Counted from the stretch's first letter, positions 3,869 to 43,520 are shown. The stretch is DNA of 64,000 bases from a virus (IMGVR_UViG_3300042139_000023); one strand, 5' to 3'. Notes: a model not told the origin generated them from the sequence alone. Numbers and translations: made by a program.

Positions 3869-3884
3869 TAAGCTGGCCTAGGCC
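3869..3884 (+). promoter_or_regulatory. -10 box plus GGCCTAGGCC operator
   Basis: TG-extended TAAGCT (3869-3874) immediately followed by palindrome 3875-3884. Confidence 0.7.
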
Positions 3885-3898
3885 GAAAGGGGAAGTAC

Positions 3899-4207
3899 GT
3901 GCAGACCTTCTACGACAGCACCTACGTGGCGAAGCACCTCGGCGTCAGCAAGTCGACCGTCATCAACTGGGTCGACCGGCCGACGGCGGCCTTCCCCATG
4001 CCTGCCGCATCGGTCCGCTACGGCGACCGGCCCCGTCAGGAGAACCCCTCCTGGACCGGCGACCAGCTCCCGCTTCTGCGCGAGTGGCTGGCACACCGGC
4101 TGGACCTGAGCGACCCGGCGGCGCACTGGGCCCTCATCGACAACGGAGGGCAGCCGCCCGGGGGTCACCAGGATCAGGGCGCCCTCTTCGACTCCGAAGG
4201 AACGTGA
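3899..4207 (+). CDS. helix-turn-helix DNA-binding protein (AlpA/excisionase-like)
   Basis: YDSTYVAKHLGVSKSTVINWVDR HTH; GAAAGGGG RBS, GTG start. Confidence 0.7.
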   Translation: MQTFYDSTYVAKHLGVSKSTVINWVDRPTAAFPMPAASVRYGDRPRQENPSWTGDQLPLLREWLAHRLDLSDPAAHWALIDNGGQPPGGHQDQGALFDSEGT

Positions 4208-4807
4208 TGTCCTACCTGGCCAGAATGCTTGTCGTGATGGTTCCGGCGCTCCTGATCAACGAGGAGGTCAACTTCTTCGCGGCGATGACGTGGGTCTTCG
4301 CCTGCTGGATGATCCGCCTCAGCATGTCCGAGAGGATCTGGATCCGCCGATGAAGCCGCACGAACTGCGCTACGTCTTCGTGGCGATGGTCCTGTCGGTC
4401 GGTGTCGCGTTCGGCATCGCCATCCCTCTGGGAGAGCCCATCGGGCCCTGGGGGTTCACCGCCTACCTGATCACGTTCTACGTGGTCTACCAGAACAGCG
4501 AATGGCTGAACCGGGCGATCGAGAAGATCGCCAACGGAAGGGAGCAGAAGAAGTGAAGCCGATCAAGGACGTGGACGACCACCTCGTGGCCCACGACGTC
4601 GCTTCGATCACGGTTGCCGGAGTGCTCGGCGCCGCAGCCGTGGCGGTCACCGGATCGCCCGAGGCGGGTATCGCGGCGGCCGGTGTCATCGCCACCACGG
4701 GCATCGGCGGCATGAAGGTCGGGCCCGTGCGCCGCACCGTCAACCGCGCCGCTCTGGCGGTCGCGGAGATCGGCCCCCTCAAGAAGGTCCCGGGGCGCAA
4801 GTCGTGA
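4207..4807 (+). CDS. three small overlapping hydrophobic ORFs (4207-4353, 4350-4556, 4553-4807)
   Basis: Translationally coupled by 1-4 nt overlaps; each has one or two predicted TM segments. Confidence 0.6.
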
Positions 4808-5301
4808 AGGCCGAGGTGCGCACCTTCCCGGTCGAGTGGCTGGAGCGTCACCACATCGCCGTCGAGGGCATGAGCAAGCTCGTCGTGCACCGTGAGTTCG
4901 TCGAGCACCAGGAGTACGGCTCCCTGTGGTCCGTCGTCTTCATGGACGAGGGCCGCTACTGGAAGGCGTCCTACCTGGAGCCGAACACCTCTGCGGTCCA
5001 CGTCGACACCTGGGGCAACGACTTGGACATCCCGGCGGTCGAGGTCCGGCCGGTGCCGAAGTTCGTCACCGAGTGGGTCGCCACCACGTCCAGCCGGGGC
5101 GGCACGTGCAAGGCCGCCCTGACCGAGACATTCAGCGACAAGGTGCTCGGACCCTGTGGTCTCGCCGCGCCGTTCCTGCTGGCCGTCACCAAGGGCAACA
5201 AGGTCGAGAGCCTGGAGCGCTGCGTAGCACATGCGCATCAGATGATGTCCTCGCCCGAGACGTTCCCCCTGATCGAGGAGGTGCGGCGCAGGTGGCACTG
5301 A
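4804..5301 (+). CDS. hypothetical protein (165 aa)
   Basis: Coupled GTGA overlap; Cys/His near C-terminus. Confidence 0.65.
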   Translation: MKAEVRTFPVEWLERHHIAVEGMSKLVVHREFVEHQEYGSLWSVVFMDEGRYWKASYLEPNTSAVHVDTWGNDLDIPAVEVRPVPKFVTEWVATTSSRGGTCKAALTETFSDKVLGPCGLAAPFLLAVTKGNKVESLERCVAHAHQMMSSPETFPLIEEVRRRWH

Positions 5302-5519
5302 CCCTCATCGGCGACCACGTGTTCCGGGGTGAACGTCACTGCCTCTTCCCGAACTGCGGCCAGCCCGAGGCGGCGCACCGCGAGTCGGCTGACGCCCGGC
5401 TCCCGCAGGTGCCTCACTGGTTCATCGGCATCCGCCTGTGCACCTGCTGCGGCATCGGATTCAACCACCCGTCCCACTGCTTCTCGCCTGCCTGGGCGAG
5501 GGCGGTCCTGAGCCGGTAG
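5292..5519 (+). CDS. small Cys/His-rich protein
   Basis: HCLFPNC..H..CTCC..H..HC pattern; GTG at 5292. Confidence 0.5.
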   Translation: MALTLIGDHVFRGERHCLFPNCGQPEAAHRESADARLPQVPHWFIGIRLCTCCGIGFNHPSHCFSPAWARAVLSR

Positions 5520-5535
5520 CCCCCGAGGAGGGGCC

Positions 5536-5745
5536 ATGAATCTCCACATCGACCTGGCGGTACTTCTCGCGATCGTCCTGTTCTTCCGGCTCCGTCCCTC
5601 AGAGGAGCCGCGCAGCTCGGGCAGTGTGCAAGTCACGGCAGTTCTGGTGCTGGTTTTCGGACTCCTCATCGCAGGGACGAACACGGGACAGATCGCTCTC
5701 GACGCGGTCAAGGGCACCGTAGGGATGCTGGGCCAGATCGGCTAG
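5536..5745 (+). CDS. small two-TM protein of the type seen in Streptomyces plasmids/AICEs
   Basis: MNLHIDLAVLLAIVLFFRLR..TAVLVLVFGLLIAGT; GAGGAGG RBS. Confidence 0.6.
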   Translation: MNLHIDLAVLLAIVLFFRLRPSEEPRSSGSVQVTAVLVLVFGLLIAGTNTGQIALDAVKGTVGMLGQIG

Positions 5746-5779
5746 AAATAGGCTGGGCGCTCAGCGAGAAAGGAACGCC

Positions 5780-13379: not shown

Positions 13380-13579
13380 TGACAGAACGGGTGAATCGGA
13401 TGATTCGGGCTGTCCGTATCGACCACTTATGTCCTGCTGTAGCGTGTCGGAGATCCATAAAAAGTGGTCCGGTATGCCTGATTCGCAGGAGTTCATGGTG
13501 ATTCGAGGAAGGCCAGAATCGCAACGAATCTGGACAAGGTGCCCCAGGAGGTGGCCTACCCGGGCGGTAGGCCATCGGG

Positions 13580-13596
13580 TAGGATCGGCCTAGGCC
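13580..13596 (+). promoter_or_regulatory. -10 box plus GGCCTAGGCC operator
   Basis: TAGGAT (13580-13585), palindrome 13587-13596, GAAAGGAGG RBS, ATG 13613. Confidence 0.7.
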
Positions 13597-13612
13597 GTTC
13601 GAAAGGAGGCAC

Positions 13613-14080
13613 ATGGACGCCCAATCGCAGCTAGAGGCAAGCAAGTTGGTCCTCAACTTGCCGTACTTCGAGCTGATCATCACCGGCTCCAGGGACTGGG
13701 CGGACCGCAGAGCGGTCCATCTGCCGCTGACCCGCCTGCTGAAACGCCACGGCCGCCTGCTCATCCGCAACGGAAAGAACAGGCGAGGCGCCGACAGGAT
13801 CGTCAGCGACTGGTCCTCCCACTTCATCGACGTGCTGGTCCTGGAGAAGCCGTACCTGCCCGACTGGGACAGCCACGGCAACTACGCGGGCAACCTCCGC
13901 AACCAGGACATGGTCGATGCCGGGGCCCAGGCCGTCATGGCGTGGGCCAACCCCTGCCGGAAGAACGGCCGCTGGTGCCCGCCGGGCGAACACCCCTCGC
14001 ACGGCACGGCCGACTGTGTCGAACGCGCCAGGAAGGCGAACATCCCCGTCTACTTCAGCCCCGAAGGGATGAGCTGGTAG
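13613..14080 (+). CDS. DUF2493/YspA-like SLOG-family protein
   Basis: LIITGSRDW..GADRI..PDW..AG..RNQDMVD.GA..SHGTADCVERARKANIPV. Confidence 0.8.
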   Translation: MDAQSQLEASKLVLNLPYFELIITGSRDWADRRAVHLPLTRLLKRHGRLLIRNGKNRRGADRIVSDWSSHFIDVLVLEKPYLPDWDSHGNYAGNLRNQDMVDAGAQAVMAWANPCRKNGRWCPPGEHPSHGTADCVERARKANIPVYFSPEGMSW

Positions 14081-17479: not shown

Positions 17480-17514
17480 GAAGGGCCGCCAGACGATGTT
17501 CTGGCGGCCCTTCG
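17480..17514 (+). terminator. hairpin
   Basis: GAAGGGCCGCCAGA-CGATGT-TCTGGCGGCCCTTC. Confidence 0.6.
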
Positions 17515-17557
17515 CCGTACGCTGATGCCCGACACGGATCACTGGAAAGGTGATGGC

Positions 17558-17989
17558 ATGAGCGAGAACGCCTACGACCGCAGCGCGCTGGGCCACGAGG
17601 CAGGAAAGCTGCTGGACGCCCTCCTGAAGCATGTGAACGAGATCGGGCGGGCCCAGGTGGCAACATCCGCCCTCCTGAAGGACAGCGGACTGACCCAGGG
17701 TGCCCTGGTGCGCGCCAGGGCGGAACTCACCCGGAACGGGCTGCTGCGAACGGAGCCGGGCTTCTCCTCTACCGGGCTGCGCGGGGCGAACGTCTACGTG
17801 CTGAACATGACCGCGATCGAGCCCCCTTCCAAGGAGATTCTGGAAGACGAAACCGGACGAATCGAGGCAGACGATCCCGATGGTGCTGGTCACCAGGTTT
17901 CCGGAGAGGTTCCTGCCCCTTCCGGGCGGCATCGCAGCGAGCGGAAGGGCTTCCTTCGTGGCCTCTTCCGTGGGTCTCGTTCTTCCTGA
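17558..17989 (+). CDS. winged-helix DNA-binding protein
   Basis: LLKDSGLTQGALVRARAELTRNGLLR..G.RGANVYVL wing. Confidence 0.65.
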   Translation: MSENAYDRSALGHEAGKLLDALLKHVNEIGRAQVATSALLKDSGLTQGALVRARAELTRNGLLRTEPGFSSTGLRGANVYVLNMTAIEPPSKEILEDETGRIEADDPDGAGHQVSGEVPAPSGRHRSERKGFLRGLFRGSRSS

Positions 17990-18157
17990 AGCACGGAAGG
18001 ACTGCCGCCCTGTCGGAAGAAGCCGAAGAAGAGGTGGTTGTTCTCCACTCGAATCGGACGAATGAGGACACGACGGGGCGGCAGTTCGTGGCACGCTTCT
18101 CGAATCGCAGTGAATTCGGACAGAACGGACGACTTCCAGGATCCTGCCCTGGTTCGC

Positions 18158-18187
18158 TTGACACGGCCTAGGCCACGCTGGCACAGT
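18158..18187 (+). promoter_or_regulatory. promoter with GGCCTAGGCC operator in the spacer
   Basis: Consensus TTGACA (18158-18163), palindrome 18165-18174, CACAGT at 18-nt spacing. Confidence 0.7.
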
Positions 18188-18252
18188 CATGCGTAACGCC
18201 CCCAAGCGAGGTTTCAGAAACCGGGGGTTTTCGGAAAGGGAGAAACCCAGAC

Positions 18253-19413
18253 ATGGACAAGACGGAAAACAACGAGAAGGTCGCGAAGGTCGACATCGAC
18301 GAGGACGGTCCGAAGCGTTTCTCCGTTCTGGTTCTGATGGCGAGCATCCTCTCGATCGGCTCCCTCGCCTGGAGTACCTGGTCCTTCATCGACCTGTACA
18401 AGGTCGACGCGCTCACCATCGACAAGCTGGGCGGGCTCAGCCTGATCTCCCTCTCGGCCGCCGCAACGATGGACGTCGTCTGGAGCGCGACGATGGTGGC
18501 CCAGTACCAGGGCCAGAAGCTGATGGGGAAGCTGCCGAAGGTCAAGAAGTCCTTCGACTTCCTCCCGCTCATCGGGTGGATCGAGGCCCTGTTCGTCGCC
18601 GGACTGCTCGGCTACCACGGAACGACGATCGGCGGCGGCGCCGCAGGGTTCGCGGCGGTCCTCCCGGTCTTCACGAAGCTCACGTGGACGATGGCCCTGA
18701 ACGGCCTGAAGGACCCGAGCGAACTGACCGACGAGGAGAAGGCCGAGATGGCGGCCGAGAAGCGGAAGTCGAAGCTCACCCGGGCCAAGGCCGACGCAAC
18801 CCAGGAGCAGCATGCGGCCGACATGATCCTGAAGAACCGCGAGCACGAGGCGGCCCTGGCCGAGCAGCGGCGCCTGGCGGCCATCGAGCACGAGAAGGTC
18901 CAGGCCGAGATCGAGCGCAAGAAGCTGGAGCAGCAGGCCCAGTTCGAGCTGGAGAAGGCCCGGCTGGAGGGTGAGGCCGAGACCAAGCTGATGCGTCAGC
19001 AGCTCAACGCGCGGCTCCAGATCGAGACCCTGCGCAGCCAGCAGGGCATCAGCCTGGAGCGCATGGACGCCGAGCAGGAGCTGCGCCTGCGGGCCCCGCT
19101 GGACCTCGGCTTCAACGTCATCCAGGGGCAGGTCTCCCGGCCGCAGCTCGCGAAGAGCAACGTCTCGTTCGAGGAGGAGGACGACGCGGAGGGCATCAGC
19201 CTGGACGGCCTGAACCTGACCGACGCCGAGCGCCGGAAGGTGAACCTGGCGGCCCGCTACTACGCCGCCGACGCGGCCGAGGGCGGCATCACCAAGGCCG
19301 CCTTCGCGAAGGCCAACCAGACGGGCGCCCCCCGGGTGACCGAGGCGACCACCGCCTTCCCGCTGGAGTGGTTCGTCGAGAACGGTCTCGCGAGCTGGAT
19401 GAACCAGGGCTGA
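18253..19413 (+). CDS. SpdB-like plasmid-spreading membrane protein (four TMs plus coiled coil)
   Basis: SLAWSTWSFIDL..AAATMDVVWSATMVAQ..PLIGW..LLGYHG..LPVFTKLTWTMAL..DP resembles Streptomyces SpdB-family proteins; terminator GAAGCCCCCG/CGGGGGCTTC 19431-19456. Confidence 0.55.
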   Translation: MDKTENNEKVAKVDIDEDGPKRFSVLVLMASILSIGSLAWSTWSFIDLYKVDALTIDKLGGLSLISLSAAATMDVVWSATMVAQYQGQKLMGKLPKVKKSFDFLPLIGWIEALFVAGLLGYHGTTIGGGAAGFAAVLPVFTKLTWTMALNGLKDPSELTDEEKAEMAAEKRKSKLTRAKADATQEQHAADMILKNREHEAALAEQRRLAAIEHEKVQAEIERKKLEQQAQFELEKARLEGEAETKLMRQQLNARLQIETLRSQQGISLERMDAEQELRLRAPLDLGFNVIQGQVSRPQLAKSNVSFEEEDDAEGISLDGLNLTDAERRKVNLAARYYAADAAEGGITKAAFAKANQTGAPRVTEATTAFPLEWFVENGLASWMNQG

Positions 19414-19512
19414 CAAGCCCGCACGACAGAGAAGCCCCCGCCCCGGCGGGGGCTTCCTGTTTTCCCCAACTTGCCTGTATTCTGGTTATGTTGAAGTGGA
19501 GAGGAGAATGAC

Positions 19513-21401
19513 ATGGCGTGGCGAATCGAGGCATCCGGAGGAACCGGATCCGCCAATTACGTTGTGATCCAGCCGATGATGGACGACGACCCGGAGAGCG
19601 AAGTCCGGCACGCGCTCATCACCATCTCGCCGAAGGGCGGTCGCGAGCACCCGACGATTCCGATGCTTCCGCCGGGCGCCCTGTACCGGGATCGGCTCGG
19701 TATGGCGTATCGCATTCAGGAGGCAACCATCGTCGAGACAGGAACCGACGACGGTGAACACTCCATGTGGCGCTACGAGTACCTGGTCGCCTACAGCGCG
19801 ACCCTTCCGCTCCGGCCCGTCTCATGATGGAGAAGGTCGTCACCTGGGCCATCGCGAAGGCGGTCGAAGATGTTGACGACAGCGTGACCACGGCTGCCCT
19901 GATGGGCGCCGCACTGGATACCGCCACCTTCTCGGCGATCGGCGTACCGGCGACCGGGGCTGTGATCGCAGGGGCCGCCACGGGCGTGGGCCTGAACGTG
20001 GTACGCAAGCTGAGGAAGGGAGAAGGGGAATGACCGACTGGTGGAACACGTCCGCGCCGCGACAGGAGGGCGAGCCGGTTCGCGCTGAACCCGCTATCGG
20101 GTGGGACCCGGAACCCATGCCGTCGATGCCCGCCTCTCCGCCCGAGCCTCCGGCCCAGCAGGAGGAGCCGGAAGCGCAGAAGCCGGATCGCCGCAAGAGC
20201 CTTCTCCTCGGTGCGGCCGGTGCTGCCGCCGTGGGGGTCCTGGTTTTCACCGTCATGCCGCACGACGGCTCGACTCCGGCCGACGTTCCCGGTGTGTCCG
20301 CATCATCGTCCGTCGGGGACTTCCCCCCTGCGGCCGGTGGCGGGCCCTCGGAAGGTGCACAGGACCGCGCTGAAGAATCCCGGGCACCCGCCCCGCAGAA
20401 GCCGAAGGTGGTCACCCTCTCTGCCACACCCAGTGGCTCCGGCAGCGTCGGCGCGATCGTGAAGCTGACGGTCGTGAACAACACCGACGAGGCCGTGGTC
20501 GTCATGTCGTCGATGGTGAAGGGTGACGGCCGCCCGGCGGTCATCGGAGAGGGCACGCTGGCGCCCGGCTCCCGGCGCGTAGAGCCCGGAGAGACGGCGA
20601 CCGGAACCGTGGAGTTCGCCACGAAGAAGGCGCCCGCCCAGGTGGCTCTCGTCGACCTCAGCGGGAACGTGGTGGCGGCCAGTGGCTGAACCCCTGCTGC
20701 ACCGCCTTCCGTCGACCGGGAAGTACGACAAGAAGTACCAGGTGCACGGTCACGACCACCTGATCGTCGAGGCGTACTACTCCGACGCCGAAGACAGCAA
20801 GCCGGAGTTCGGGTGCTGGTGGGTGATCGACGCCCGCTTCACCGCCCTCGACCGGTACCGTCGGCAGATCGTCTTCTCCTCCACGTACCTCTCCGACATC
20901 CGGAGCTGGCTGAAGGCTGGAGGGGCGAGCCTGTGGGACCCCGAGAAGAGGAAGGCCGACAAGGACTGGAAGCCGATTCCCGAAGGGTGGTCCCCCGACG
21001 ACAGCCGACTGGAGGCGAAGCGTCGTACACCCTTCAGGCCGTTCGGCGAGAAGGGGTCACGGGCACACAGGTCGGCGCGCAGGCCCGAGGAGCCGGAGCC
21101 CAGCGACTACCCGCTCTACCCAAGGGGCCTGACGGGCAAGAAGTACGCCGTCGTCCCCGGGTGGGTCACCTCCGTCAACGACGGTCAGCGGCACTGGATC
21201 GGATTCGGTGCACTCACCTGGCTGTACGGGGTTAATCCGGCCGAGTGCATCAAGGTCGACGACGAGACCGAACGTGGCTGGAACGACGACCTGCGGGCAC
21301 ATCTGATCTGGCTGTATCCGCAACGCAGGCACGAGGACTACGAATCGATGAAGGAGGAGCTGGCCAGGGGCGAGGACGCCTTCAAGCTGATCGAGCCCTG
21401 A
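19513..21401 (+). CDS. four hypothetical ORFs (19513-19827, 19824-20033, 20030-20689 membrane-anchored with Ig-like C-terminus, 20682-21401)
   Basis: Coupled overlaps; TM SLLLGAAGAAAVGVLVFTVM in 20030-20689. Confidence 0.6.
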
Positions 21402-21410
21402 GCATGCGAA

Positions 21411-21440
21411 AGCCCCCGTCGCACCGTTGCGACGGGGGCT
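21411..21440. terminator. bidirectional terminator
   Basis: AGCCCCCGTCGCA-CCGT-TGCGACGGGGGCT between convergent genes. Confidence 0.7.
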
Positions 21441-21461
21441 CTGCACATCCGCATGGGGTCC

Positions 21462-22196
21462 TCACAGGGGCACGTGGAACGAGACCGGCCTGTTGCCCTC
21501 GCAGACCTTCACGGCGACCTCGACGACCTTGCCGTTGGCCAGGAGGACCCGACGCGCCGTCTGCGTGACGATCGCGTACGCGCCCTTCAGTTCCAGCAGC
21601 TCCCGCTCCCGGTCCGTCGCCAGACGCGACGTGATGACGGGGATCAGGTCCTTCTGCCGGGAGCCCATGCGTTCGGCCGCCAGCTCCCGCGAACCGCGCG
21701 GGGTGGACTCGGCCATCGCCAGCTCGGGCGTCACGGCCGTCACCTCGGGCGGGTAGTACGAGTGTCCGGTGGCGACCGGCTTGCCGTCGATCTTGTTCAG
21801 GCGCTCCCGGTACACGACCCCCTCGCCGGGCTCGACGCCCAGCGCGGAAGCGATGCTGGCCGGGCACGGCACCGTCTCCACCCGCAGGATCTCCGAGGTC
21901 TCTCGGGCGCCCAGCGCCTTGCCGCTCGCCGCGTAGTTCCCGACGCGGTCCTGGACCGTCGCCGTGCGTCCCGAGATGTCCGCCACGACCGGCGGCCGGT
22001 TGCCGCTGGACGGCTCCAGGACCCCTTCCGCCGTCAGCAGCTCCACGACCTTGTCGATGGTGACGCGCGACGTCTTGTGGGTCTTGGCGAGCCTGCGGCG
22101 CGACTCCAGCGGGGTACCCGGCGCCAGATCACCAGAGGTGATCCTGGATCGGTAATGTGCCGCAATGGCACGGTACTTGGGAATCTGCTCGCTCAC
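21462..22196 (-). CDS. GntR/HutC-family regulator with UTRA domain (KorA/TraR/KorSA-like)
   Basis: PKYRAIA..ITSGDLAPG.PLESRRRLA...SRVTI.K....L..EGVL, C-terminal UTRA-like domain; GAGGAG RBS, GTG 22196. Confidence 0.9.
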   Translation of the reverse strand: MSEQIPKYRAIAAHYRSRITSGDLAPGTPLESRRRLAKTHKTSRVTIDKVVELLTAEGVLEPSSGNRPPVVADISGRTATVQDRVGNYAASGKALGARETSEILRVETVPCPASIASALGVEPGEGVVYRERLNKIDGKPVATGHSYYPPEVTAVTPELAMAESTPRGSRELAAERMGSRQKDLIPVITSRLATDRERELLELKGAYAIVTQTARRVLLANGKVVEVAVKVCEGNRPVSFHVPL

Positions 22197-22215
22197 TTTT
22201 TCTCCTCGCGTTCGC

Positions 22216-22244
22216 TTGTGGCCTAGGCCGTATTGTGTCATGCT
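22216..22244. promoter_or_regulatory. divergent promoter region with GGCCTAGGCC operator
   Basis: Palindrome 22220-22229, 24 nt upstream of the GntR start; TTGTGG-17-CATGCT on +. Confidence 0.65.
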
Positions 22245-22283
22245 GGACTCCACAACGCCAGCAGGGACCGAAGAGAGGGCGAC

Positions 22284-22448
22284 ATGGAAGGTAACGGGGA
22301 GGTTCAGGAGCCGGTTGTGCCGCAACCTCAGCACGTGCCGGAGGCTTCTCTGGGGCAGCTTTCTGACTTCGCTGCCAACCAGGATATCGCCCGATTGGAG
22401 GCAACCGTAGAGGCCAACATCGGACTAGCTTCCGACGGAAAGCCGTAA
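22284..22448 (+). CDS. small hypothetical protein
   Basis: GAGGG RBS, ATG 22284. Confidence 0.45.
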   Translation: MEGNGEVQEPVVPQPQHVPEASLGQLSDFAANQDIARLEATVEANIGLASDGKP

Positions 22449-22463
22449 CGCGGAAGGAGAAAC

Positions 22464-23426
22464 GTGGCGACGAAGGCAGCCATTCCGCCGAAGCCGAAGA
22501 CGGCCCCCACCGTGCACCTCAAGGGCCAGAAGCGGAAGCCGCCACGGACCCTGAAGGGCGACCTCAAGGCACTGAAGGGGAAGCTCGGTTCGGCCACCAC
22601 TCGGTGGACCGAGAGTCAGGGCAAGGCGGAAGAGAAGAAGGAGAAGGTACGCCAGGAGGCCGAGAAGATCCTGGCCCCCGTCAAGGAAAAGGCCGCAGAG
22701 GAGAAGAAGCTCGCGGCCGAAGTGATGAAGCCCGTTCAGGCGGCTGCCGCCGCCATCAAGAACGGGTTGGATCCGGCCAACGGAAAGACCCGGCCGTACG
22801 TCACTTCGTTCATGATCTCCTCGGTGATGTCGTGGGCTGTCGGACCGCAGATTCTGACCGCTCTGTACGAGCGAATCCGCTTCGGCACCTCGACCACCGG
22901 ATGGGGAATCCTGAACGGCCCTGGCAGGTGGTTCAGGGACACGATCGGCATGGCGTACGAGTCGGACCGGCTCGGCAGCCTGATCTGGGCAGCGATCATG
23001 GGGCTCACCCCCATGATCCTGATGTTCACCCGGAACCAGGTCGCCGGATACCTGGCCCAGAGCACGTACCGGGGGCGGATGGTCGCCTTCAGCATCAAGT
23101 GGCTGACCCGTTCGGCCTGGCTGGTTCCGGTCCTGTTCTTCGTGGGGGTCTCGTACCCCGACGAGGTGACGGCGATCTTCGGTTCGCCGTGGACCTTCCA
23201 GATGTGGCAGTTCTGGGTCGCCGGTCTGTTCTGCATGGCGTTCTACGCGACCATGTGGGTCTTCGACCGGATCGAACGGCTCAACCGCGAGCGGTCGGCC
23301 ATGTCGGAGGAGGAGCGCGAGAAGTCCCAGAGCATGGGGCCGGGCATCTTCCACGCCGTACTCATGATCCCGCTGGCGTCGATCGTCACGGGGATCCTGC
23401 TCTACGCACCGGGCGCCGCCTGGTGA
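22464..23426 (+). CDS. multi-TM membrane protein with N-terminal basic coiled coil (transfer-region-like)
   Basis: Lys/Ala-rich N-terminus, five to six hydrophobic helices. Confidence 0.65.
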   Translation: MATKAAIPPKPKTAPTVHLKGQKRKPPRTLKGDLKALKGKLGSATTRWTESQGKAEEKKEKVRQEAEKILAPVKEKAAEEKKLAAEVMKPVQAAAAAIKNGLDPANGKTRPYVTSFMISSVMSWAVGPQILTALYERIRFGTSTTGWGILNGPGRWFRDTIGMAYESDRLGSLIWAAIMGLTPMILMFTRNQVAGYLAQSTYRGRMVAFSIKWLTRSAWLVPVLFFVGVSYPDEVTAIFGSPWTFQMWQFWVAGLFCMAFYATMWVFDRIERLNRERSAMSEEEREKSQSMGPGIFHAVLMIPLASIVTGILLYAPGAAW

Positions 23427-23651
23427 TGCACAAGGGCCTCCGCTGCCGTGTGGCAGCCCAGCTACCGCTGGAAGCCGGTTCGCATCCGGCCGGAGGTACG
23501 AAGCGGACGAACGAGCCGCTTGGAAAGGGGACGAGTCGTGTTCCAGAAGGACGACGACCTCGACGGGCTGCCGGTACTGAAGCCCGCCGGTCCCGGCCGG
23601 TGAGTCTGTGGGGCCGCTGGAGGGCGGCCCCACAGGGAAGGTGAGGGAAAA

Positions 23652-24230
23652 GTGATTCTGGCACTCACGCAGCAGCAGCAGATCGAGGTTCCGGAGAATT
23701 CGTGGATCGGTCACACCACGATGGCAGGCTTCGGAATCATCCTGCTGGTGCTCTCGTTCCTCTGCATCAAGGGGAACAAGAAGGGTCAGCAGATGTTCCT
23801 CTGGGGCGGGCTGACCAAGGCGCTGATGACCAAGGCCGTGCAGCAGCCGACCAGCCGCATGATGACGAAGGTCCACGGAGGTCCGAGCGAAGGGTTCGAC
23901 TGGCGGTCCGCAATGACATTCCTCGTGGGAATGTGGGCCATGACGTCGATCGTCAGCTCGACCGGTGGGTTCGTCGTCGACCTGGTCGACTGGTTCCAGG
24001 GTCTGGTCATGGCGCTGGCCGACTGGCCGGTCCTGTCCGACATCGGAGCCGGAGGCATCTGCCTCTTCCTCGGGTTCCTCGCGATGCGGAACAAGGATGA
24101 CGACAAGCAGGATCTGATGTACGGCGCCATCTGCGGGTTCTTCTTCCCGCTCGGCGGCGGCACCTGGGCCGAGATCACACTCCAGATCGGCAACTGGATC
24201 CCGCAGCTCATGCAGAGCCCGTTCCACTGA
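23652..24230 (+). CDS. multi-TM membrane protein (transfer-region-like)
   Basis: Four to five hydrophobic helices; terminator AACGGCCGGGCCC/GGGTCCGGCCGTT follows. Confidence 0.65.
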   Translation: MILALTQQQQIEVPENSWIGHTTMAGFGIILLVLSFLCIKGNKKGQQMFLWGGLTKALMTKAVQQPTSRMMTKVHGGPSEGFDWRSAMTFLVGMWAMTSIVSSTGGFVVDLVDWFQGLVMALADWPVLSDIGAGGICLFLGFLAMRNKDDDKQDLMYGAICGFFFPLGGGTWAEITLQIGNWIPQLMQSPFH

Positions 24231-24303
24231 GGTGGGCGGTTCCAACGGCCGGGCCCTTCGCGGGTCCGGCCGTTCGGCTTTTCAACTCCAGTACAGGTTC
24301 ACC

Positions 24304-24333
24304 TTGTTGGCTGGCCTAGGTCAATGTTAGAGT
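24304..24333 (+). promoter_or_regulatory. promoter with GGCCTAGGTC operator variant
   Basis: TTGTTG-18-TAGAGT (24328-24333), operator variant 24313-24322 in the spacer. Confidence 0.6.
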
Positions 24334-24355
24334 GGAGCCCGGAGAAGGGAGGAAC

Positions 24356-24994
24356 GTGATGCGCAGGGCAGGCGGAGTATTCGTCGGCGTGTTTCTGGCA
24401 GTTGGGGCAGTTCAGGCCGTCACCGGTTTCATTCCGGCGGTCCCGTCTGCCGCGTCCGTCGCGGCGCCTCCGAAGCAGGAGGCCACCGGGGACTACAAGT
24501 TCACGGGCACCTCTGCCCCGATCCGGCCCGGCTCGGTCCCGAAGAAGCGCTGGGAAGAGCTGATCAACAAGTGGGGCAACAAGTGCAAGACGTTGACCCC
24601 CGCCCTCCTGGCGGCCCAGCTCGATCAGGAGAGCATGGGATTCAAGCCTGAAGTCATCGACGGACGACTGGACTCCCCGGCCTCCGCCAAGGGCATGGCC
24701 CAGTTCATCGACGGCACGTGGGCCACCGAGGGGATCGACGCAAACGGGGACGGCAAGCGCAACAAGTACGACCCCGAGGACGCCATCCCCTCGGCCGCGA
24801 CGCTGGACTGCAAGCTCGCGAACGGCCTGAAGGACATACCTGGCCCCACCTGGAAGAACATGCTCGCCGGATACAACGCGGGCGGCTTCCGGGTGAAGCA
24901 GTACAACGGCGTCCCGCCGTGCTCGTTCGCCAGGTGCGAGACCTACAACTACGTGAAGTTCATCGAGCGGAAGACGAGGAAGTACGAGCAGTGA
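24356..24994 (+). CDS. secreted lytic transglycosylase (SLT)
   Basis: LLAAQLDQES.GF..SPASAKGMAQFIDGTW..DGDG......DPEDAI..LAGYNAG. Confidence 0.9.
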   Translation: MMRRAGGVFVGVFLAVGAVQAVTGFIPAVPSAASVAAPPKQEATGDYKFTGTSAPIRPGSVPKKRWEELINKWGNKCKTLTPALLAAQLDQESMGFKPEVIDGRLDSPASAKGMAQFIDGTWATEGIDANGDGKRNKYDPEDAIPSAATLDCKLANGLKDIPGPTWKNMLAGYNAGGFRVKQYNGVPPCSFARCETYNYVKFIERKTRKYEQ

Positions 24995-25590
24995 ACCGGA
25001 CTCAGCGAGCGGCCCTGGCGGTCGCCTCCGTGGCGCTGCTCGTGCCCGTCACGTCATCCTGTGCCGCGCTCAACGCGGCGCCCATCTCGAACGCCACGGC
25101 GAACCCCAACCCGGAGATCGAGAAGATCAACTGGTACTCGCCCGAGCAGCGCGCCAAGGAGGCGAAGCGACAGGAGCGGGACACCAAGGTCTCCAGTTCC
25201 CGGTCGGGCGACGCGGCGGCCGTGGCCATCGCGTACGCCCGCACGAAGATCGGAGTTCCCTACCTCTGGGGCGGCACCGGCACCAGCGCCCAGGGCGGTC
25301 GCTTCGACTGCTCCGGCCTGACGCAGGCCGCGTACGCCAAGGCGGGGATCAGGATCCCTCGGGTCGCGAACGACCAGTACAACACGACCAGCAATCATCC
25401 ATCCTGGGATGAACTGGAGCCGGGTGACCTGGTCTTCTTCGGCCAGAAGGGGAATTCGCGCTCGATTCATCACGTCGGCATCTACATCGGTGGCGGCAAG
25501 ATGCTGCACGCGCCACGGACCGGAACGAAGATCCGCGTCAACGACGTGCACTACATGAACGACTACTTCGGAGCGACGAGGGTGGCCTGA
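24991..25590 (+). CDS. NlpC/P60 lipoprotein
   Basis: Lipobox TSS-C; IGVPYLWGG..FDCSGL..PGDLVFFG..HHVGIYIG..LHAP. Confidence 0.9.
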   Translation: MNRTQRAALAVASVALLVPVTSSCAALNAAPISNATANPNPEIEKINWYSPEQRAKEAKRQERDTKVSSSRSGDAAAVAIAYARTKIGVPYLWGGTGTSAQGGRFDCSGLTQAAYAKAGIRIPRVANDQYNTTSNHPSWDELEPGDLVFFGQKGNSRSIHHVGIYIGGGKMLHAPRTGTKIRVNDVHYMNDYFGATRVA

Positions 25591-36799: not shown

Positions 36800-37642
36800 A
36801 TGACAGCAGAAGATCAGGAAAATATTCGCACTTTCGTCGAGGGAATCGCGGTGGCCACCATCACCCGGCCGTCGACCCGCGACAAGCAGAAGGCCCCCGG
36901 CCCGAGCGACCTTGCCGACAAGTGCGACCTCTGCGTGGCACGGAAGATCGCCGCATCACTGGGCATGGGCTCCCACACCGAGCGAGGGTTCAGCCTGAAG
37001 GCGTGGCTCGGCACGGCTGTGCACGAGAAGCTGGAGCGCGACCTGCCTGCGGTGTACGCCCACGCCGAGCAGGAGATCACCGTGGACGTGGCACAGGTCC
37101 CGGGCATCGGCCTGGTGCAGGGGCATGTGGATGTCTTCCTCCCCCGGAAGAAGACCCTGGTCGACTGGAAGACGACCGACCTGAAGAAGCTGAAGAAGTA
37201 CCAGACCCAGGCGGGTCCCGGCGCCTACGTCCACGGGCTGACGGCTCCGGAGCGCGAGGATCTGACCAAGCTCAAGGCGATGGACCGGGCGGGCCTGCTG
37301 ACCGAGGCCGACCTGGGCCGGATGGTCATGCTGATGTCGCGGTCCGAAGAGCACTCGGGCGGCGTGCCGTCGGAGTACATGGGCCAGACGATGCTGTACC
37401 TGTACGGACTGCGGGCGATGGGGCGTGAAGCGGACTACGCTGTCCTCGCGTTCATCCCCCGGGACTCGAACAACGTGAGCGACATCTGGGTGGCCTCCTG
37501 TGCCTACCGGCCCGACGTGGCCCAAGGCGTCATCAACAGGGCCGCTCACCTGGCCTCTCTCGTGCGCACCGGCAAGATCGGTGAGCTTTCGGCCCACCCC
37601 GAGTGCTTCCCGTGCTCGATTCGGCCTAGGCTGCGCGGCTAA
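36800..37642 (+). CDS. Cas4/AddB-like PD-(D/E)xK exonuclease with four-Cys cluster
   Basis: PSDL..KCDLC..GTAVH..GHVD..VDWKT..Q..LY..CFPC; possibly leaderless (TAGGGT 36788-36793, 6 nt before ATG). Confidence 0.85.
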   Translation: MTAEDQENIRTFVEGIAVATITRPSTRDKQKAPGPSDLADKCDLCVARKIAASLGMGSHTERGFSLKAWLGTAVHEKLERDLPAVYAHAEQEITVDVAQVPGIGLVQGHVDVFLPRKKTLVDWKTTDLKKLKKYQTQAGPGAYVHGLTAPEREDLTKLKAMDRAGLLTEADLGRMVMLMSRSEEHSGGVPSEYMGQTMLYLYGLRAMGREADYAVLAFIPRDSNNVSDIWVASCAYRPDVAQGVINRAAHLASLVRTGKIGELSAHPECFPCSIRPRLRG

Positions 37643-37725
37643 ATAGTGGTAGAGTGGAGACACAAGAACACGACACCACGCGAACCAAAAACGACACAAG
37701 AACAAGCACTGAAAACGAGGCACGC

Positions 37726-38883
37726 ATGACTGAGCTTGTCCGTCGTACGACCGGCGAGGTGGATCCCGCCGAAGCAGCGCGGCTGTCGAAGTCGAAGCTG
37801 ATGCCGGAGCACATCGCAGGTGATGCAGCCTCCGCCGAGTACATGATGCGCTTCGGCGCCGCCCTGGGCATCGACCCGATGTCCTCCTTCCAGCACATCT
37901 TCGTCTTCCCCGACGGCAAGGGGCGCCTGAAGGCGGGCATGAGTGCTCACCTGATGCAGGCGCTCGCCGTTGCCGCCGGTCACACCGTGCACATCGAGGG
38001 CAATGCCGTGAAGGCGACCGCCGTCCTGGTGCGCAAGACGTCCGACGAAGACCTCCAGCGCTTCCAGCGGATGCGCGAGGAGGAGCGGCGCCAGAAGCTG
38101 GCCCGGCTGGAGGACATGGACCGGCTGTACAAGATGCAGCGCGGCCAGATCCTGGAGCGGATCGAAGACCTCCGAGCCCTTGCCGAGTTCGACGAGAAGG
38201 CGTCTCCCGAGGAGATCGCGGCCCTGCGCAAGCAGATCGCGGCCCTGCACGGGCAGTACAACTTCGACGAGCTGCGCGAATCCATCTCCACCACGAACTT
38301 CGACCTGTCCAAGCTGGTCCGGTTCGAGTCCGTGTGGTCGATGGCGCGAGCCAACCAGATCGGCCTCAACTCCAAGAGCACCTGGCAGAACTACGGTCCC
38401 GAGATGCTGAAGAGCCGGGCCAAGTCGGGTGTGGTGCGAGACGGCGCGATCGACGTCATCCTCGGCGTCAAGAACATCCTCGGCGAGATGGGCCTGTCCC
38501 TCTCCGAGGACGACCACGACCACCTGGCCATGGCCTCCGCCGCCTACACCCCCGAGGAACTGGGGGCCGAGGTGAACGAGGAAGGCGTGCCGATCCAGGG
38601 TGAGGTCATCGACGTCACCAAGGGCGGCAGCAAGAAGCAGAAGGCCATGCTCGACGCAGCCCGCAAGGCCGTCGACAAGGGGACCCCGCAGCAGCTCGCC
38701 GACTGGGCCTCCCGCATGACCGGCGACGACAGCTCGTCTGTCGACGACAAGATCTCCCGCATCTACGCCATTCAGGAAGCGGCGCGAGAAGCGGGCAAGG
38801 GGGATCAGGCGGTGGGCCAGGGCGACGCCCAGGTTCCGCTGAGCCTCCACCTGGAATCCATCGTCAACTCCCTCCGCAACTGA
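37726..38883 (+). CDS. RecT-like ssDNA annealing protein
   Basis: LGIDPM..F.HI..MSA.LM.AL...GH..W...RA...GL..K.TW..Y..EML..RA..DVILG..YTPEELG; directly after the exonuclease. Confidence 0.75.
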   Translation: MTELVRRTTGEVDPAEAARLSKSKLMPEHIAGDAASAEYMMRFGAALGIDPMSSFQHIFVFPDGKGRLKAGMSAHLMQALAVAAGHTVHIEGNAVKATAVLVRKTSDEDLQRFQRMREEERRQKLARLEDMDRLYKMQRGQILERIEDLRALAEFDEKASPEEIAALRKQIAALHGQYNFDELRESISTTNFDLSKLVRFESVWSMARANQIGLNSKSTWQNYGPEMLKSRAKSGVVRDGAIDVILGVKNILGEMGLSLSEDDHDHLAMASAAYTPEELGAEVNEEGVPIQGEVIDVTKGGSKKQKAMLDAARKAVDKGTPQQLADWASRMTGDDSSSVDDKISRIYAIQEAAREAGKGDQAVGQGDAQVPLSLHLESIVNSLRN

Positions 38884-40153: not shown

Positions 40154-40274
40154 TCGCAACAAGATGAGCTGGGCGGATACGATCGGTTATCCGCCCGGTT
40201 CATGACGGGCGGGGCCTTCCGGGGTCCCGCCCGTTCTGCGTCCGGAAAGTCGCACAAGAAAAGGAGGGACGCAG

Positions 40275-42560
40275 GTGAGCTTCGTCTTCTTCGACACCCT
40301 CTTTCCGAAGATCAATGACGACGGAAAGGATCTGGGGTTCGTCGCGATCTCGTTGTTCCCGGGCGGCACGTACGACCCGGATGAAAAGACGGGGCCGACG
40401 CAGACCACCTTCTTCGCGTGGCCGTCGCAGCGCGACGACCTCGTTGCCTTCTGCCTGGGGAGCAGCGACAAGGACGTCTACACCGTCCCCGCGCTGTTCC
40501 GCACCCGGAGCAGTCGCAAGGGCAGCAACATCGCCCACCAGTGGGCCGCGTACGCCGACGCCGACACGCTCCCCCTGGACCGGCTCAAGGTCGAGCCGAC
40601 GATGATCGTCGAGACGTCCGAGGGGCGCCACCACCTGTACTGGGTGACCGAGACCGACGACCCCCAGCAGCTCATCGACATCTCCCGGGCCATCGCCTCC
40701 GAGCACACCCGCGACGGCTGCGACCCCAGCGGATGGGACGCGGGCCAGCTCCTGCGCGTGCCTGGCACGGCGAACAACAAGTACTCCCGGCACGGCCGCC
40801 CGCGCTGGCAGGTTCCGCAGCCGAAGATGGGCGCCACGTACACGATGAAGGCGCTGGCCAGCGCCTATCCGCCCTACAGCACGCAGGACCGGCCGAGCGT
40901 CGCCAGCGACATGCCGCCGAAGAGCGACTGGTACTTCTCGCAGCAGTCCATCCGCGAGTCTGCCGAGGTCTTCCGTTCCAGTCCCGAGGTGCACGACCTG
41001 TACGCGGCCGACCTGAAGCCGGACCAGGACCGCTCGAAGACCCTGTGGAAGCTGCTCAGTCTGCTCTCCCGGCTGAACGTCTCCCGCATCACAGCCATGC
41101 ACATCGCGTGGTCGGCGAAGTGCAACAAGTACAAGATCGATGGACGTCCCGAGGAAGAGCTGTGGCAGCAGCTCTGCAAGGCGTACGACCACCCCGACAA
41201 CCAGCCCAAGCGCAACAGCTTCTCCGACCTCGGGTTCCGCAAGGAGGCCGACGAAAGTGAGGAGAACCCGGAGAAGAAGCTCGCCGACTTCGCCGAGGCC
41301 GTCTCGATCCTCCTGCCGGAGGAGCGTGACCGGGTCCCGATGGACACCTTCATCGACCGGTACCAGCAGTGGGCCGAGACGCGCACCGACGCCCCGTCCT
41401 GCTACCACCGGGCGGGCGCCGCGACGGTCCTGTCCACCGTGCTGGGCGAGTTCGGCAAGTGCCCGACGAAGTTCGACACGAACCTGACCCTGTGGTTCTT
41501 CATCCTCGGCCCGACCACTCGGGCCAGGAAGACGACCGCGATGATGATGTGGGTCGACTTCCTGGACGAGCTGTCCAACGACACCTTCCCGTACCTGCTC
41601 GGCTCCGATGTCACGTCGGAGGCCCTGAGCGTCATCCTCCCCGACCGCAACGGCCGCTCCTCGGTGTTCTACCGGGACGAGGCTCACGGTCTGCTGTACG
41701 AGCAGGCCGCGAAGCGATACCTGGCGGGCGTGCGCGAGCACATGACGGAGCTGTTCACCGGCCGCGTCCGTATCGCTCTGCGTGTCGGCAACCTGAAGGA
41801 GCACGAGGACCGCGACCTGTCGGTCATCCGCACGAACTTCCTGATGTTCCTGTGCGGCACGCTCCAGCAGGTCACCGAGCACCTGACGATCGGCGACTAC
41901 CAGTCCGGCCACCTGGCCCGCTTCCTCATCGCGGAGGCCGACCCGCCGCCGATGACCGAAGAGGGCATGTTCACCGAACAGTTCGACGGCCAGACCCCGG
42001 CCGACGACGTGATGCGCCAGGGGCTGCTCAACGACATGTTCGCGGCGCGGGCCTTCTGGATGGAGGAGACCAAGCCGGGCGACACGGTGATGATCCCCTT
42101 CGACGACCCGACCTGGCGCCGCCTCCAGAAGGCCAAGTGGGAGCTGTACGCGGCGGCCGACAAGCACGAGCTGGCCGAGGTGCTGCTGCCCACAACTTCC
42201 CGCATGGGCGACTCGATGATGAAGATGGCCGTCCTCATCGCGATGTCCGAACGGGAGAAGATCGTGCGGATGCCGCACCTCCTGAAGGCGATGCACCTGA
42301 CCGAGGAGTGGTACCGGTCTACGGCGCGCGTCGCGGGCAAGATTCTCCACTCGGAATGGGCTGCCCGGCAGAACGAAATCCTCACTGCGATCCAGGCACG
42401 GAAGGAGGGCGTCACGGAGCAGGACATCTACTCGCGGTTCCGCTCTAAGATCCAGGAGAGGGACATCGAGTCGGACCTGCACGTGCTCGCCAAGGCGGGC
42501 CTGATTCACAAGACGATGGAACGCGGAAGGGTTCGTTACGTACCGATCGCGCGGAGCTGA
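40275..42560 (+). CDS. primase (RepB/AEP-like) fused to DUF3987 P-loop domain
   Basis: YADAD..PTMIVETSEGRHHLYW..GQLLRVPGT.N; C-half NLTLWFFILGPTTRARKTT..TSEAL..DEAHG..SGHLARF. Confidence 0.85.
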   Translation: MSFVFFDTLFPKINDDGKDLGFVAISLFPGGTYDPDEKTGPTQTTFFAWPSQRDDLVAFCLGSSDKDVYTVPALFRTRSSRKGSNIAHQWAAYADADTLPLDRLKVEPTMIVETSEGRHHLYWVTETDDPQQLIDISRAIASEHTRDGCDPSGWDAGQLLRVPGTANNKYSRHGRPRWQVPQPKMGATYTMKALASAYPPYSTQDRPSVASDMPPKSDWYFSQQSIRESAEVFRSSPEVHDLYAADLKPDQDRSKTLWKLLSLLSRLNVSRITAMHIAWSAKCNKYKIDGRPEEELWQQLCKAYDHPDNQPKRNSFSDLGFRKEADESEENPEKKLADFAEAVSILLPEERDRVPMDTFIDRYQQWAETRTDAPSCYHRAGAATVLSTVLGEFGKCPTKFDTNLTLWFFILGPTTRARKTTAMMMWVDFLDELSNDTFPYLLGSDVTSEALSVILPDRNGRSSVFYRDEAHGLLYEQAAKRYLAGVREHMTELFTGRVRIALRVGNLKEHEDRDLSVIRTNFLMFLCGTLQQVTEHLTIGDYQSGHLARFLIAEADPPPMTEEGMFTEQFDGQTPADDVMRQGLLNDMFAARAFWMEETKPGDTVMIPFDDPTWRRLQKAKWELYAAADKHELAEVLLPTTSRMGDSMMKMAVLIAMSEREKIVRMPHLLKAMHLTEEWYRSTARVAGKILHSEWAARQNEILTAIQARKEGVTEQDIYSRFRSKIQERDIESDLHVLAKAGLIHKTMERGRVRYVPIARS

Positions 42561-42572
42561 CCCGGAGGAAGC

Positions 42573-43520
42573 GTGGCCCGAAAGCCGACCGGGCGACCAC
42601 CGGGAAGGCCGCCTGGGGACCGCTACGGAACGCCCCAGGAGCGCGTCTCCCGGGCCAGGACGCTCGTTCCCTCACTGCACCGCTTCCCGCACCTCGTGAG
42701 GGCCGTGGAGCGCGTCATGGAGGCTCCCAACCGGACCGTCTTCCGCAGCCCGTACAACACCAATCCAGCCGACGTCGACCTGCTCCACGTGTACAGCCCG
42801 GCGGAGAGGGGGCAGATCCTCTCCTTCACCTGGTGGGCCCACGTGAACCGCCGCAGGTGGAGCAGGCGGCGTCGGCTGGCTGCGGTGACCCTGCTCAGCC
42901 CGTTGCTGCTCTTCAGCTCCTCCTTCTTCGAGGAGATGACCGAGCTGCCCTCGGCGACCTGCCAGAAGTGGATGGTCCGGCCCGAGGGGATGCAGGCCAC
43001 GCGGGTGCTCGGTTCGTGCGACATGCGGGTGATCCACCTGGCCCTGGAAGCGGCGACGCGCGGCGACACGGCCTTCCGGCTGTTCGCTGCCGACATCGTC
43101 CGCGACAAGGGCGTTCCCGAGGCCATGGCCTCCCGGCTCACGGGCGTCCCCAAGGTCGTCCTGCTGGAGCCGTCCCGTGGTGTTCAGTTCACGCCGGTCG
43201 GTCCGGACCTGGACACCCTGTCGGTGCGTTCGCGTGAAGACCAGATGTTCTGGCAGGGCATGGCGAGCGAGCGCGAGGTGGAGCTGGCGCCGTACGTCTA
43301 CGGCCAGGAGTGGGTGCGCGACCTGTTCCCGGAAATGCTCCTGAAGGAGAACATCTTCACTGCGACGCCCGTCCCCAGAAACGGTGAGGACTGCTACCAT
43401 TTGTGCATCCCCGAGCTGCCTAGGCCACATCGCGCCCGGCACCTCGGCAGCAGGTACTACGACCTGCTCTACTCGTGGGAGGAGAAGTACCTCCTGCCCG
43501 CGACCACGGGAATCGCGTGA
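42573..43520 (+). CDS. hypothetical protein (315 aa)
   Basis: GAGG RBS, GTG start, lies between primase and polymerase. Confidence 0.6.
   Translation: MARKPTGRPPGRPPGDRYGTPQERVSRARTLVPSLHRFPHLVRAVERVMEAPNRTVFRSPYNTNPADVDLLHVYSPAERGQILSFTWWAHVNRRRWSRRRRLAAVTLLSPLLLFSSSFFEEMTELPSATCQKWMVRPEGMQATRVLGSCDMRVIHLALEAATRGDTAFRLFAADIVRDKGVPEAMASRLTGVPKVVLLEPSRGVQFTPVGPDLDTLSVRSREDQMFWQGMASEREVELAPYVYGQEWVRDLFPEMLLKENIFTATPVPRNGEDCYHLCIPELPRPHRARHLGSRYYDLLYSWEEKYLLPATTGIA

Follow-up and report, generated by a model that had tools for sequence, protein, structure and literature searches.

A predicted GntR/HutC-type regulator and its probable 12-bp palindromic operator at the promoters of a large Streptomyces phage

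Introduction

DasR of Streptomyces and NagR (YvoA) of Bacillus subtilis are regulators in which a winged helix-turn-helix (wHTH) is joined to a UTRA sensor domain. Proteins of this HutC type dimerize, and the dre operators of these regulators are palindromes centered on CTAG, with GG at positions -5/-4, that overlap core promoters. The DasR dre consensus core is TGGTCTAGACCA, and its targets are N-acetylglucosamine (GlcNAc) and chitin genes. Here we analyze a 64,000-nucleotide (nt) stretch of viral DNA (IMGVR_UViG_3300042139_000023; the whole stretch is called the window below) that carries a gene for a protein of the same domain make-up, gntR, together with a short palindrome, GGCCTAGGCC, that recurs in promoter DNA. 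We propose that the protein and the palindrome form an autoregulating phage regulon.

Several systems on mobile elements and phages offer further comparisons. The Kor repressors (KorA of pIJ101, KorSA of pSAM2, and SCO3932) are HutC-type proteins that are encoded divergently from their target operon, are autoregulated, and act on a site in the shared control region; they have one or two targets, the defining (kil) one being the main transfer gene (Tra/TraB, FtsK-like). The phage-plasmid pZL12 (pZL12.80) and its relatives encode a GntR/UTRA protein homologous to the one in the window (~41% identity) and have a perfect palindrome upstream of its gene. The repressor gp71 of mycobacteriophage L5, a temperate phage with an integrase, acts at genome-wide stoperators that are asymmetric, orientation dependent, and located within transcription units.

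Results

Abundance and symmetry of the palindrome

The phage GntR/HutC protein probably binds the 12-bp palindrome YGRCCT-AGGYCR (the hyphen marks the axis of symmetry) at about 15 promoters as an autoregulating repressor. The evidence consists of an excess of the motif, its promoter context and conservation, the domain make-up of the protein, and the co-occurrence and co-variation of the motif with the regulator clade.

Perfect copies of GGCCTAGGCC occur at 3875, 13587, 18165, and 22220 in the window, and one-mismatch copies at 24313, 37623, and 43417; all seven had been listed in an earlier note on this DNA. The same note put the chance expectation at 0.3 perfect copies per 64 kb, which was too generous, as dinucleotide shuffles give 0.02 for the window and none of 100 shuffles reached four. 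Six perfect copies and nine copies of the one-base variant GGCCTAGGTC (or its complement) give 15 sites in the whole genome, with ~0.06 copies of each class expected given base composition and the 42 CTAG tetranucleotides present. CTAG is extremely depleted in this 168-kb genome (42 copies vs 1387 of GATC), and 17 of the 42 (40%) lie inside the operator word: the six perfect copies, the nine of GGCCTAGGTC, GGCCTAGGCT at 37623, and TGCCTAGGCC at 43417. GGCCTAGG was the top non-coding-enriched 8-mer of the genome, above the words of ribosome-binding sites (RBSs). A reversed-word control, CCGGATCCGG, had five copies; it contains the common GATC and is thus an unfair control for a CTAG word.

The 15 sites, which fit G[GA]CCTAGG[CT]C, were tallied as 30 half-sites. 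Positions -6, -5, and -4 were always occupied by Y, G, and R, respectively, and positions -3 to -1 by CCT (30 of 30 each); A at -4 was confined to at most one half per site, and there was no information beyond -6. Because half-site conservation ends at -6, the element is a 12-bp palindrome, and the 10-mer is indeed preceded by Y and followed by R at all four perfect window sites.

Two other explanations for the word were considered and rejected. A restriction-site or compositional artifact does not suit a word that holds 17 copies of an avoided tetranucleotide, placed non-randomly and at promoters. A terminator or hairpin was also discarded, as the palindrome has neither a loop nor a T run.

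Promoter context and conservation

All 15 sites precede genes in the plus direction of the window and lie within the non-structural arms of the genome, with none in the structural block. In the deposited annotation of Streptomyces phage Frankenweenie, 13 sites could be checked: 12 fall in intergenic DNA, with the next gene starting 15-88 nt downstream, and the 13th lies 33-42 nt inside an annotated start (P ~1e-7 for intergenic placement against a conservative estimate of 21% non-coding DNA). A -10 hexamer of the actinobacterial type (TANNNT) was present on the gene strand within -16 to +26 at 13 of the 15 sites, compared with 1.1 +/- 1.0 of 15 random non-coding positions (maximum 6 in 2000 draws). 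The interval from the end of the -10 to the motif is 0-9 nt at eight sites, which would place the transcription start within the site. At five others the -10 follows the motif, which then fills the spacer or overlaps the -35 and is sometimes itself the -35 (TTGACC-TAGGCC). This varying position relative to the -10 argues for an operator rather than a fixed promoter element. The hexamers TAAGCT, TAGGAT, and TTGACA named in the earlier note are at the places it gave.

The seven window sites were aligned with those of Frankenweenie, JustBecause, and Satis, three isolated phages with, respectively, 6+9, 6+9, and 5+10 perfect and variant copies. At 3875, 18165, and 24313, the motif and the neighboring -10 or -35 form identical blocks amid upstream flanks that cannot be aligned. 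In a 67% relative found in the assembly of Streptomyces sp. NEAU-Y11 (contig L026), sites stand, as in the window, before gntR, the SLT gene, the membrane protein gene with a weak SpdB_N match, and the YAcAr gene, indicating that regulon membership is conserved. The proposal of a genome-wide, operator-like element in promoter DNA is borne out by the nearby TANNNT hexamers, the intergenic placement, and the retention of sites in relatives.

The GntR/UTRA protein and its pairing with the motif

Pfam searches of the gntR product identified both domains that had been read from it earlier: a GntR wHTH (PF00392; 30.2 bits, cut-off 27) at residues 8-65 and a UTRA domain of the chorismate-lyase fold (PF07702; 59.3 bits, cut-off 23.8) at residues 96-236, covering 137 of 141 profile positions. 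As both exceed the Pfam cut-offs, the protein can be placed in the HutC subfamily. Its best solved relatives are 3eet, DasR (4zs8), and NagR/YvoA (2wv0/4wwc), and its orthologs in cluster BM phages, 79-87% identical, are annotated only as "HTH DNA-binding". The gene is among the few on the minus strand in the 1-46 kb arm, the others forming a lysis block at ~9.3-11.7 kb.

Loci around homologs of the regulator were fetched from IMG/VR, Logan, and NCBI. GGCCTAGGCC lay 31-57 nt before gntR in all 12 fetched loci with a 50-97% homolog, each of these 10-20 kb loci having one to four perfect copies, and it occupied the orthologous place upstream of gntR in three BM relatives. It was found in none of 14 loci with 39-44% homologs (pZL12-like phage-plasmids, an IMG/VR contig, and a plasmid), most of which have instead the perfect palindrome GCGCTA(G/C)TA(C/G)TAGCGC ~105 nt upstream of gntR. 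This split of operators matches a split in the recognition helix, TSR(V/A)TIDK vs VAHTTVNRA. Perfect palindromes of 14-16 bp at that distance were seen in pZL12-like phage-plasmids (L029:5897-5912, L041, L046, and L048-L050), making GCGCTA(G/C)TA(C/G)TAGCGC a candidate operator for that clade.

In the NagR-DNA structure, Arg38 reads G-5, Arg48 reads G-4, and Gly69 in the wing contacts the minor groove (PMC4333415). Alignment to 2wv0 (offset +4) places R34, R44, and G65 of the phage protein at these positions. The plasmid clade, with its different operator, has His or Gln at the R44 position. A 43% homolog on a phage-like Streptomyces contig keeps R44 and has Leu in place of R34; the two sites upstream of its gene, (A/C)GCCTAGGCA, keep G at -4 and lack G at -5. 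The joint loss of the predicted G-5 reader and of G at -5 goes the way the structure predicts, in one lineage. The GntR/UTRA protein thus stands, as first suggested, as by far the best candidate reader of the palindrome, given that the motif tracks homologs of at least 50% identity and that the base-contacting residues of NagR are kept.

The word was also compared between phage and host DNA. In the NEAU-Y11 assembly, 15 of 23 motif copies fall in the single 185-kb BM-like phage contig, a 94-fold higher density than in the remainder of the genome, and this concentration indicates that the word is specific to the element.

Two loci with homologous regulators have unusual neighborhoods. On a BM-like contig (P0058, ENA, 144,837 bp), two 244-aa GntR/UTRA genes adjoin on opposite strands and may represent a duplicated regulator. 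On a 272-kb contig of Streptomyces sp. 5-10 with BM-like neighbors (L027:10862-16615), the 43% GntR homolog stands beside two FabH-like genes and genes for a ketoreductase, an acyl-CoA-oxidase-like protein, and an acyltransferase, that is, small-molecule biosynthesis genes beside a ligand-sensing regulator.

Individual sites in the window

The predicted operators and the genes that follow them are listed in Table 1.

Table 1. Predicted operators, the regulator gene, and associated features (window coordinates unless a contig is named; CDS, coding sequence)
Feature	Coordinates	Strand	Description or promoter context	Downstream gene(s)
gntR, GntR/HutC-type regulator	21462..22196	-	244 aa, GTG start, RBS GAGGAG	
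O1, predicted operator	3874..3885		touches -10 hexamer TAAGCT (3869-3874, preceded by TGc)	102-aa helix-turn-helix (HTH) gene, 3899-4207, GTG 14 nt past site; heads long run of small genes
O2, predicted operator	13586..13597		1 nt past -10 TAGGAT (13580-13585)	YAcAr/SLOG (DprA-like), 13613-14080
O3, predicted operator	18164..18175		spacer of TTGACA (18158-18163), 18 nt, CACAGT (18182-18187)	386-aa membrane protein, 18253-19413
O4, predicted operator, TGGCCTAGGCCG	22219..22230		divergent control region	gntR vs rightward operon
O5, predicted operator, TGGCCTAGGTCA (common one-base variant)	24312..24323		spacer of TTGTTG (24304-24309), 18 nt, TAGAGT (24328-24333)	SLT (~24356-24994), NlpC/P60 (24991-25590)
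O6, probable operator, CGGCCTAGGCTG (one mismatch)	37622..37633		final 20 nt of Cas4-type exonuclease CDS	
One-mismatch copy, TGCCTAGGCC	43417..43426		inside CDS 42573-43520	
Tra-like FtsK/SpoIIIE-type gene	L061:1411-2712 = G000:C1:145863-147164	-	433 aa, ~1.4 kb left of window	

O4 lies 23 nt from the GTG start of gntR (22196), just downstream of a leftward extended -10, TGa-CACAAT (complement of 22232-22237), that would serve that gene. The same operator occupies the spacer of a predicted rightward promoter (TTGTGG, 22216-22221; 17 nt; TGt-CATGCT, 22239-22244) that would drive a 54-codon open reading frame (ORF) and a membrane protein gene, with the SLT and NlpC/P60 genes more distally, so that gntR faces these plus-strand genes across one shared operator. 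The ~60-bp block at 22220 is nearly invariant in four phages that are ~80% alike overall.

At O1, the -10, motif, and RBS are kept across relatives and the upstream DNA has diverged; the HTH matches of the downstream product are weak and under the Pfam cut-offs. O2 is kept in Frankenweenie and JustBecause, Satis carries the variant GACCTAGGCC, and the YAcAr gene of the 67% relative keeps an orthologous site. The promoter-operator block of O3 is kept in four phages next to an unrelated upstream flank, and in the 67% relative an arrangement of TTGACAc plus motif likewise precedes the gene with a weak SpdB_N match. O5 is kept in four phages, and the 67% relative has an orthologous GACCTAGGCC 36 nt before its SLT gene. 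The 24313 copy had been described as a one-mismatch copy in the spacer of the SLT promoter; the location stands, but the copy is not degenerate and belongs to the abundant GGCCTAGGTC class.

O6 is at the -35 position of the -10 hexamer TAGAGT (37650-37655), before a RecT-like gene (ORF 37654-38883, with the true start further downstream; phrog_4171, E 1e-7), as proposed. It is identical in four of four phages, including Satis, in which the adjacent bases differ. O6 is a probable operator; coding constraint could be another cause of its conservation. The 43417 copy, which had been put forward as a weak site, was dropped. It lies in coding DNA with no -10 nearby, has been lost in Satis, and is probably not a site. 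The named target genes are real, namely an HTH gene, SLT, NlpC/P60, and a RecT-like gene.

Three further features were seen next to these sites. An inverted repeat, GTGGCCTACCC...GTAGGCCA, at 13545-13575 directly before the TAGGAT promoter and O2 is kept in four of four phages and probably terminates the unit before it. Between promoter/operator and RBS, the leader of the membrane protein gene (18190-18250) has a CCCCC...GGGGG stem followed by a T run; it is kept in four phages and may be an attenuator or leader structure. The Cas4-type exonuclease gene is uninterrupted (843 nt) in the window (36800-37642) and in JustBecause, and in Frankenweenie it is annotated with an intron (1836 nt; L001:36786-38621).

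The phage genome and a possible resident relative

The window corresponds to the reverse strand of 80453-144452 in a 168-kb viral contig with 89% completeness (CheckV). At the DNA level the window is 89% identical to Frankenweenie and ~80% identical to JustBecause, Kela, Satis, and Kradal, and the element is a large Streptomyces siphophage of the cluster BM type, from soil. Cluster BM siphophages have genomes of 184-200 kb and prolate heads (PMC6687918). Up to ~46 kb the window contains replication and recombination genes, the lysis block, and many small plus-strand genes, and beyond ~46 kb tail genes, including the tape-measure gene, on the minus strand. The element is a tailed phage rather than a plasmid or an integrative and conjugative element. 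At least 14 metagenome runs, from rhizosphere or soil samples of many studies, contain DNA nearly identical to 17500-25500 of the window; the phage lineage is therefore widespread in soil.

The contig (89% complete) and three complete BM genomes were searched with the profiles PF00589, PF00239, and PF13614; there was no match, that is, no integrase, serine recombinase, tyrosine recombinase, resolvase, or ParA. The integrase or partition genes that mark a temperate lifestyle in phages with L5-type immunity repressors were thus found in none of these four sequences by these searches.

The NEAU-Y11 contig (L026; GCA_024295805.1; 185,382 bp; G001:C6) encodes a tape-measure protein and a PolA that are 70% identical to those of the window, the PolA frame having one in-frame TAG. 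Its gntR is followed directly by a ParA-like gene and a gene of 309 aa, and C6:11817-12305 encodes a tyrosine recombinase. The contig may be a resident relative of the BM phages, either a phage-plasmid or integrated.

Similarity to plasmid transfer systems

The nearest non-phage relatives of the regulator (41-45% identity) come from Streptomyces plasmids of 22-55 kb, on which their GntR genes neighbor DUF2637 and transfer genes; identity to pIJ101 KorA is 31% over 160 aa (E 1e-14). The earlier note had viewed the protein as a co-opted plasmid-type Kor repressor. The nearest non-phage relatives agree with this, but KorA itself is only a distant match and the Tra-like gene of the phage has no operator. 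Over 75% of its length, that gene (phrog_17958, E 8e-42) shares 31% identity with the pIJ101 tra region, and its identity to small Streptomyces plasmids is 38%; it has a weak C-terminal HTH. The gene represents a DNA pump of plasmid type carried by a tailed phage. No motif was found upstream of it within the contig, and the nearest site, GACCTAGGCC, is just after its stop codon.

The membrane protein gene at 18253-19413 had been labeled a spread gene. Its identity as SpdB was rejected, as its product had no Pfam match even at E up to 1, save noise, and no similarity to pIJ101 SpdB. Matches of the product were limited to hypothetical proteins from pZL12-like plasmids, at 35% identity across 45% of its length. 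What is left of the label is a weak SpdB_N match in relatives.

Discussion

In the model that we infer from these observations, the 244-aa protein would bind the 12-bp palindrome as a dimer at 15 genomic sites, five of them in the window, and at a probable sixth window site with one mismatch. Each site would overlap the core of a host-type promoter (-10 TANNNT) of non-structural genes. Since sites overlap promoter cores (the +1 region, the spacer, or the -35), the bound dimer would be expected to exclude RNA polymerase and so repress transcription. A dimer on the single site that gntR shares with the divergent rightward operon would close both promoters, and gntR would thus be negatively autoregulated. 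Release from the DNA would follow when the UTRA domain binds a small molecule. The circuit may serve to time early and middle genes in lytic growth or to silence them in a carrier or plasmid-prophage state. A timing role fits the lack of tyrosine or serine recombinase and ParA matches in the BM phages and the contig, and the 67% relative in a bacterial assembly, with its ParA-like and recombinase genes, hints that the same circuit is able to hold a resident state.

Several observations weigh against this model. The sites at 18165 and 81665 have no TANNNT nearby, and a scan of 3000-41999 for E. coli consensus promoters called none at any site and found no excess over shuffles; the rule used (TTGACA/TATAAT, 9 of 12 matches) is more stringent than actinobacterial promoters allow and was replaced by the TANNNT test. 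The promoters are thus predictions, made from hexamers and conservation alone. The contigs from soil metatranscriptomes covered small parts of the region, were sparse and short (150-500 nt, depth 2-5), and fell in many different genes. They give no information on the start, strand, or level of transcripts and may reflect DNA carry-over, and no conclusion was drawn from them. The co-variation at -5 comes from one lineage with two sites, and homologs of at least 50% identity belong to related phages, in which a constant motif partly reflects shared ancestry. Other phage HTH proteins could in principle read the site.

This last point leads to an alternative in which the adjacency of gntR is coincidental and the palindrome is read by host DasR, another host HutC regulator, or another phage HTH protein. 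The palindrome differs from the dre core only at the symmetric -3/+3 positions and keeps the GG that NagR-type proteins read directly, and several small HTH genes lie in the window. However, the motif tracks the phage GntR clade and changes with its recognition residues, every one of the 30 half-sites has C at -3, with no site showing the T of the dre consensus, and just eight copies occur in ~9.3 Mb of Streptomyces genome outside the phage contig, which indicates that no host regulon uses the word. We regard a different reader as unlikely. A role of the protein as an activator or dual regulator, for example in an early-to-middle switch at promoters where the site overlaps the -35, appears more doubtful still. 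The sites at -1397, 37623, and 132878 do overlap the -35, where class II activators sit, and silencing has no obvious use in BM phages that lack integrase, serine recombinase, and ParA matches; yet at most sites occlusion is to be expected, as the +1 region or the spacer is covered, and the HutC proteins with solved mechanisms (NagR, DasR, and KorSA) are repressors.

Least probable, in our judgment, is that the word is a promoter or transcript element, be it a phage-specific promoter class, an initial-transcribed sequence, or a self-complementary RNA signal in 5' leaders. Such an element would explain why the motif is the strongest non-coding word of the genome and why it starts 0-9 nt past the -10 at 8 of 15 sites, where transcripts would begin in or just before it. 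The start of the -10, however, ranges from 15 nt before to 22 nt after the start of the motif, which would not be transcribed at the five spacer or -35 sites. In addition, the two-fold symmetry is perfect, the asymmetric variant occurs in both orientations (6 vs 3), always before same-strand genes, and a loopless palindrome of 10-12 bp is unable to form a stable hairpin.

Repression by the phage GntR protein, the reading that we favor, resembles each of the described systems in part. Its operation would be like that of DasR/NagR at dre sites: the domain make-up and the three base-contacting residues of NagR are shared, and the phage sites are likewise CTAG-centered palindromes with GG at -5/-4 on core promoters. 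The system is nevertheless not a member of that regulon. The phage half-sites do not match dre at -3, the similarity to DasR (E 1.8e-8) covers residues 4-147 only and that to NagR has E 5e-6, the closest homologs are phage and plasmid proteins, and the targets are HTH, YAcAr, membrane, SLT, NlpC/P60, and RecT-like genes in place of GlcNAc and chitin genes. With the Kor systems it shares a HutC-type protein on a mobile element and the divergent layout, which is that of korA/tra on pIJ101, with autoregulation predicted for the phage gene. It differs in having ~15 dispersed targets rather than one or two, in the recognition helix and palindrome of the nearest plasmid clade, and in the absence of a site upstream of the Tra-like gene, which sets it apart from the control of the main transfer gene by Kor; we know of no kil phenotype for the phage system. 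The pZL12 group is separated by its helix (VAHTTVNRA vs TSRVTIDKV) and by its palindrome, GCGCTAGTACTAGCGC, ~105 nt upstream, with no GGCCTAGGCC in those loci. As with L5 gp71, one phage repressor would act at many short sites over non-structural parts of the genome, but here the sites are palindromic and on promoters, in phages with no matches to integrase, serine recombinase, or ParA.

We found no paper on the motif or on the regulator in phages, and the BM genome announcements do not mention them; the regulatory network is undescribed in the papers searched, although its kind is familiar. New in this work are the mapping of NagR residues to operator bases, the co-variation at -5 in the 43% lineage, the density comparison with a host genome, and the ParA-bearing, possibly resident relative. 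The pairing of recognition residues with operator bases over three clades provides a natural specificity series for HutC proteins and could yield orthogonal repressor/operator pairs for Streptomyces engineering.

Hardly anything is known about the control of the ~330 genes in Streptomyces phages of 180-260 kb. The predicted wiring diagram, with one regulator, one 12-bp word, and ~15 promoters, is concrete and cheaply testable, and three isolated phages (Satis, JustBecause, and Frankenweenie) are available for experiments. As a speculation with rather little probability, the GntR-operator network might be the master switch of a hidden non-lytic lifestyle in these very large phages, in which a metabolite sensed by UTRA would choose between silence and expression of ~15 early and middle operons. 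The silent state would be that of a carrier or plasmid-prophage, as the 185-kb contig with ParA-like and recombinase genes in a Streptomyces isolate suggests, and the operons would include plasmid-like wall hydrolase and membrane genes that, with the Tra-like pump, could carry the phage DNA across the mycelium in capsid-free form. If the repressor model is true, the phage could use the sensor domain of its repressor to monitor host metabolism.

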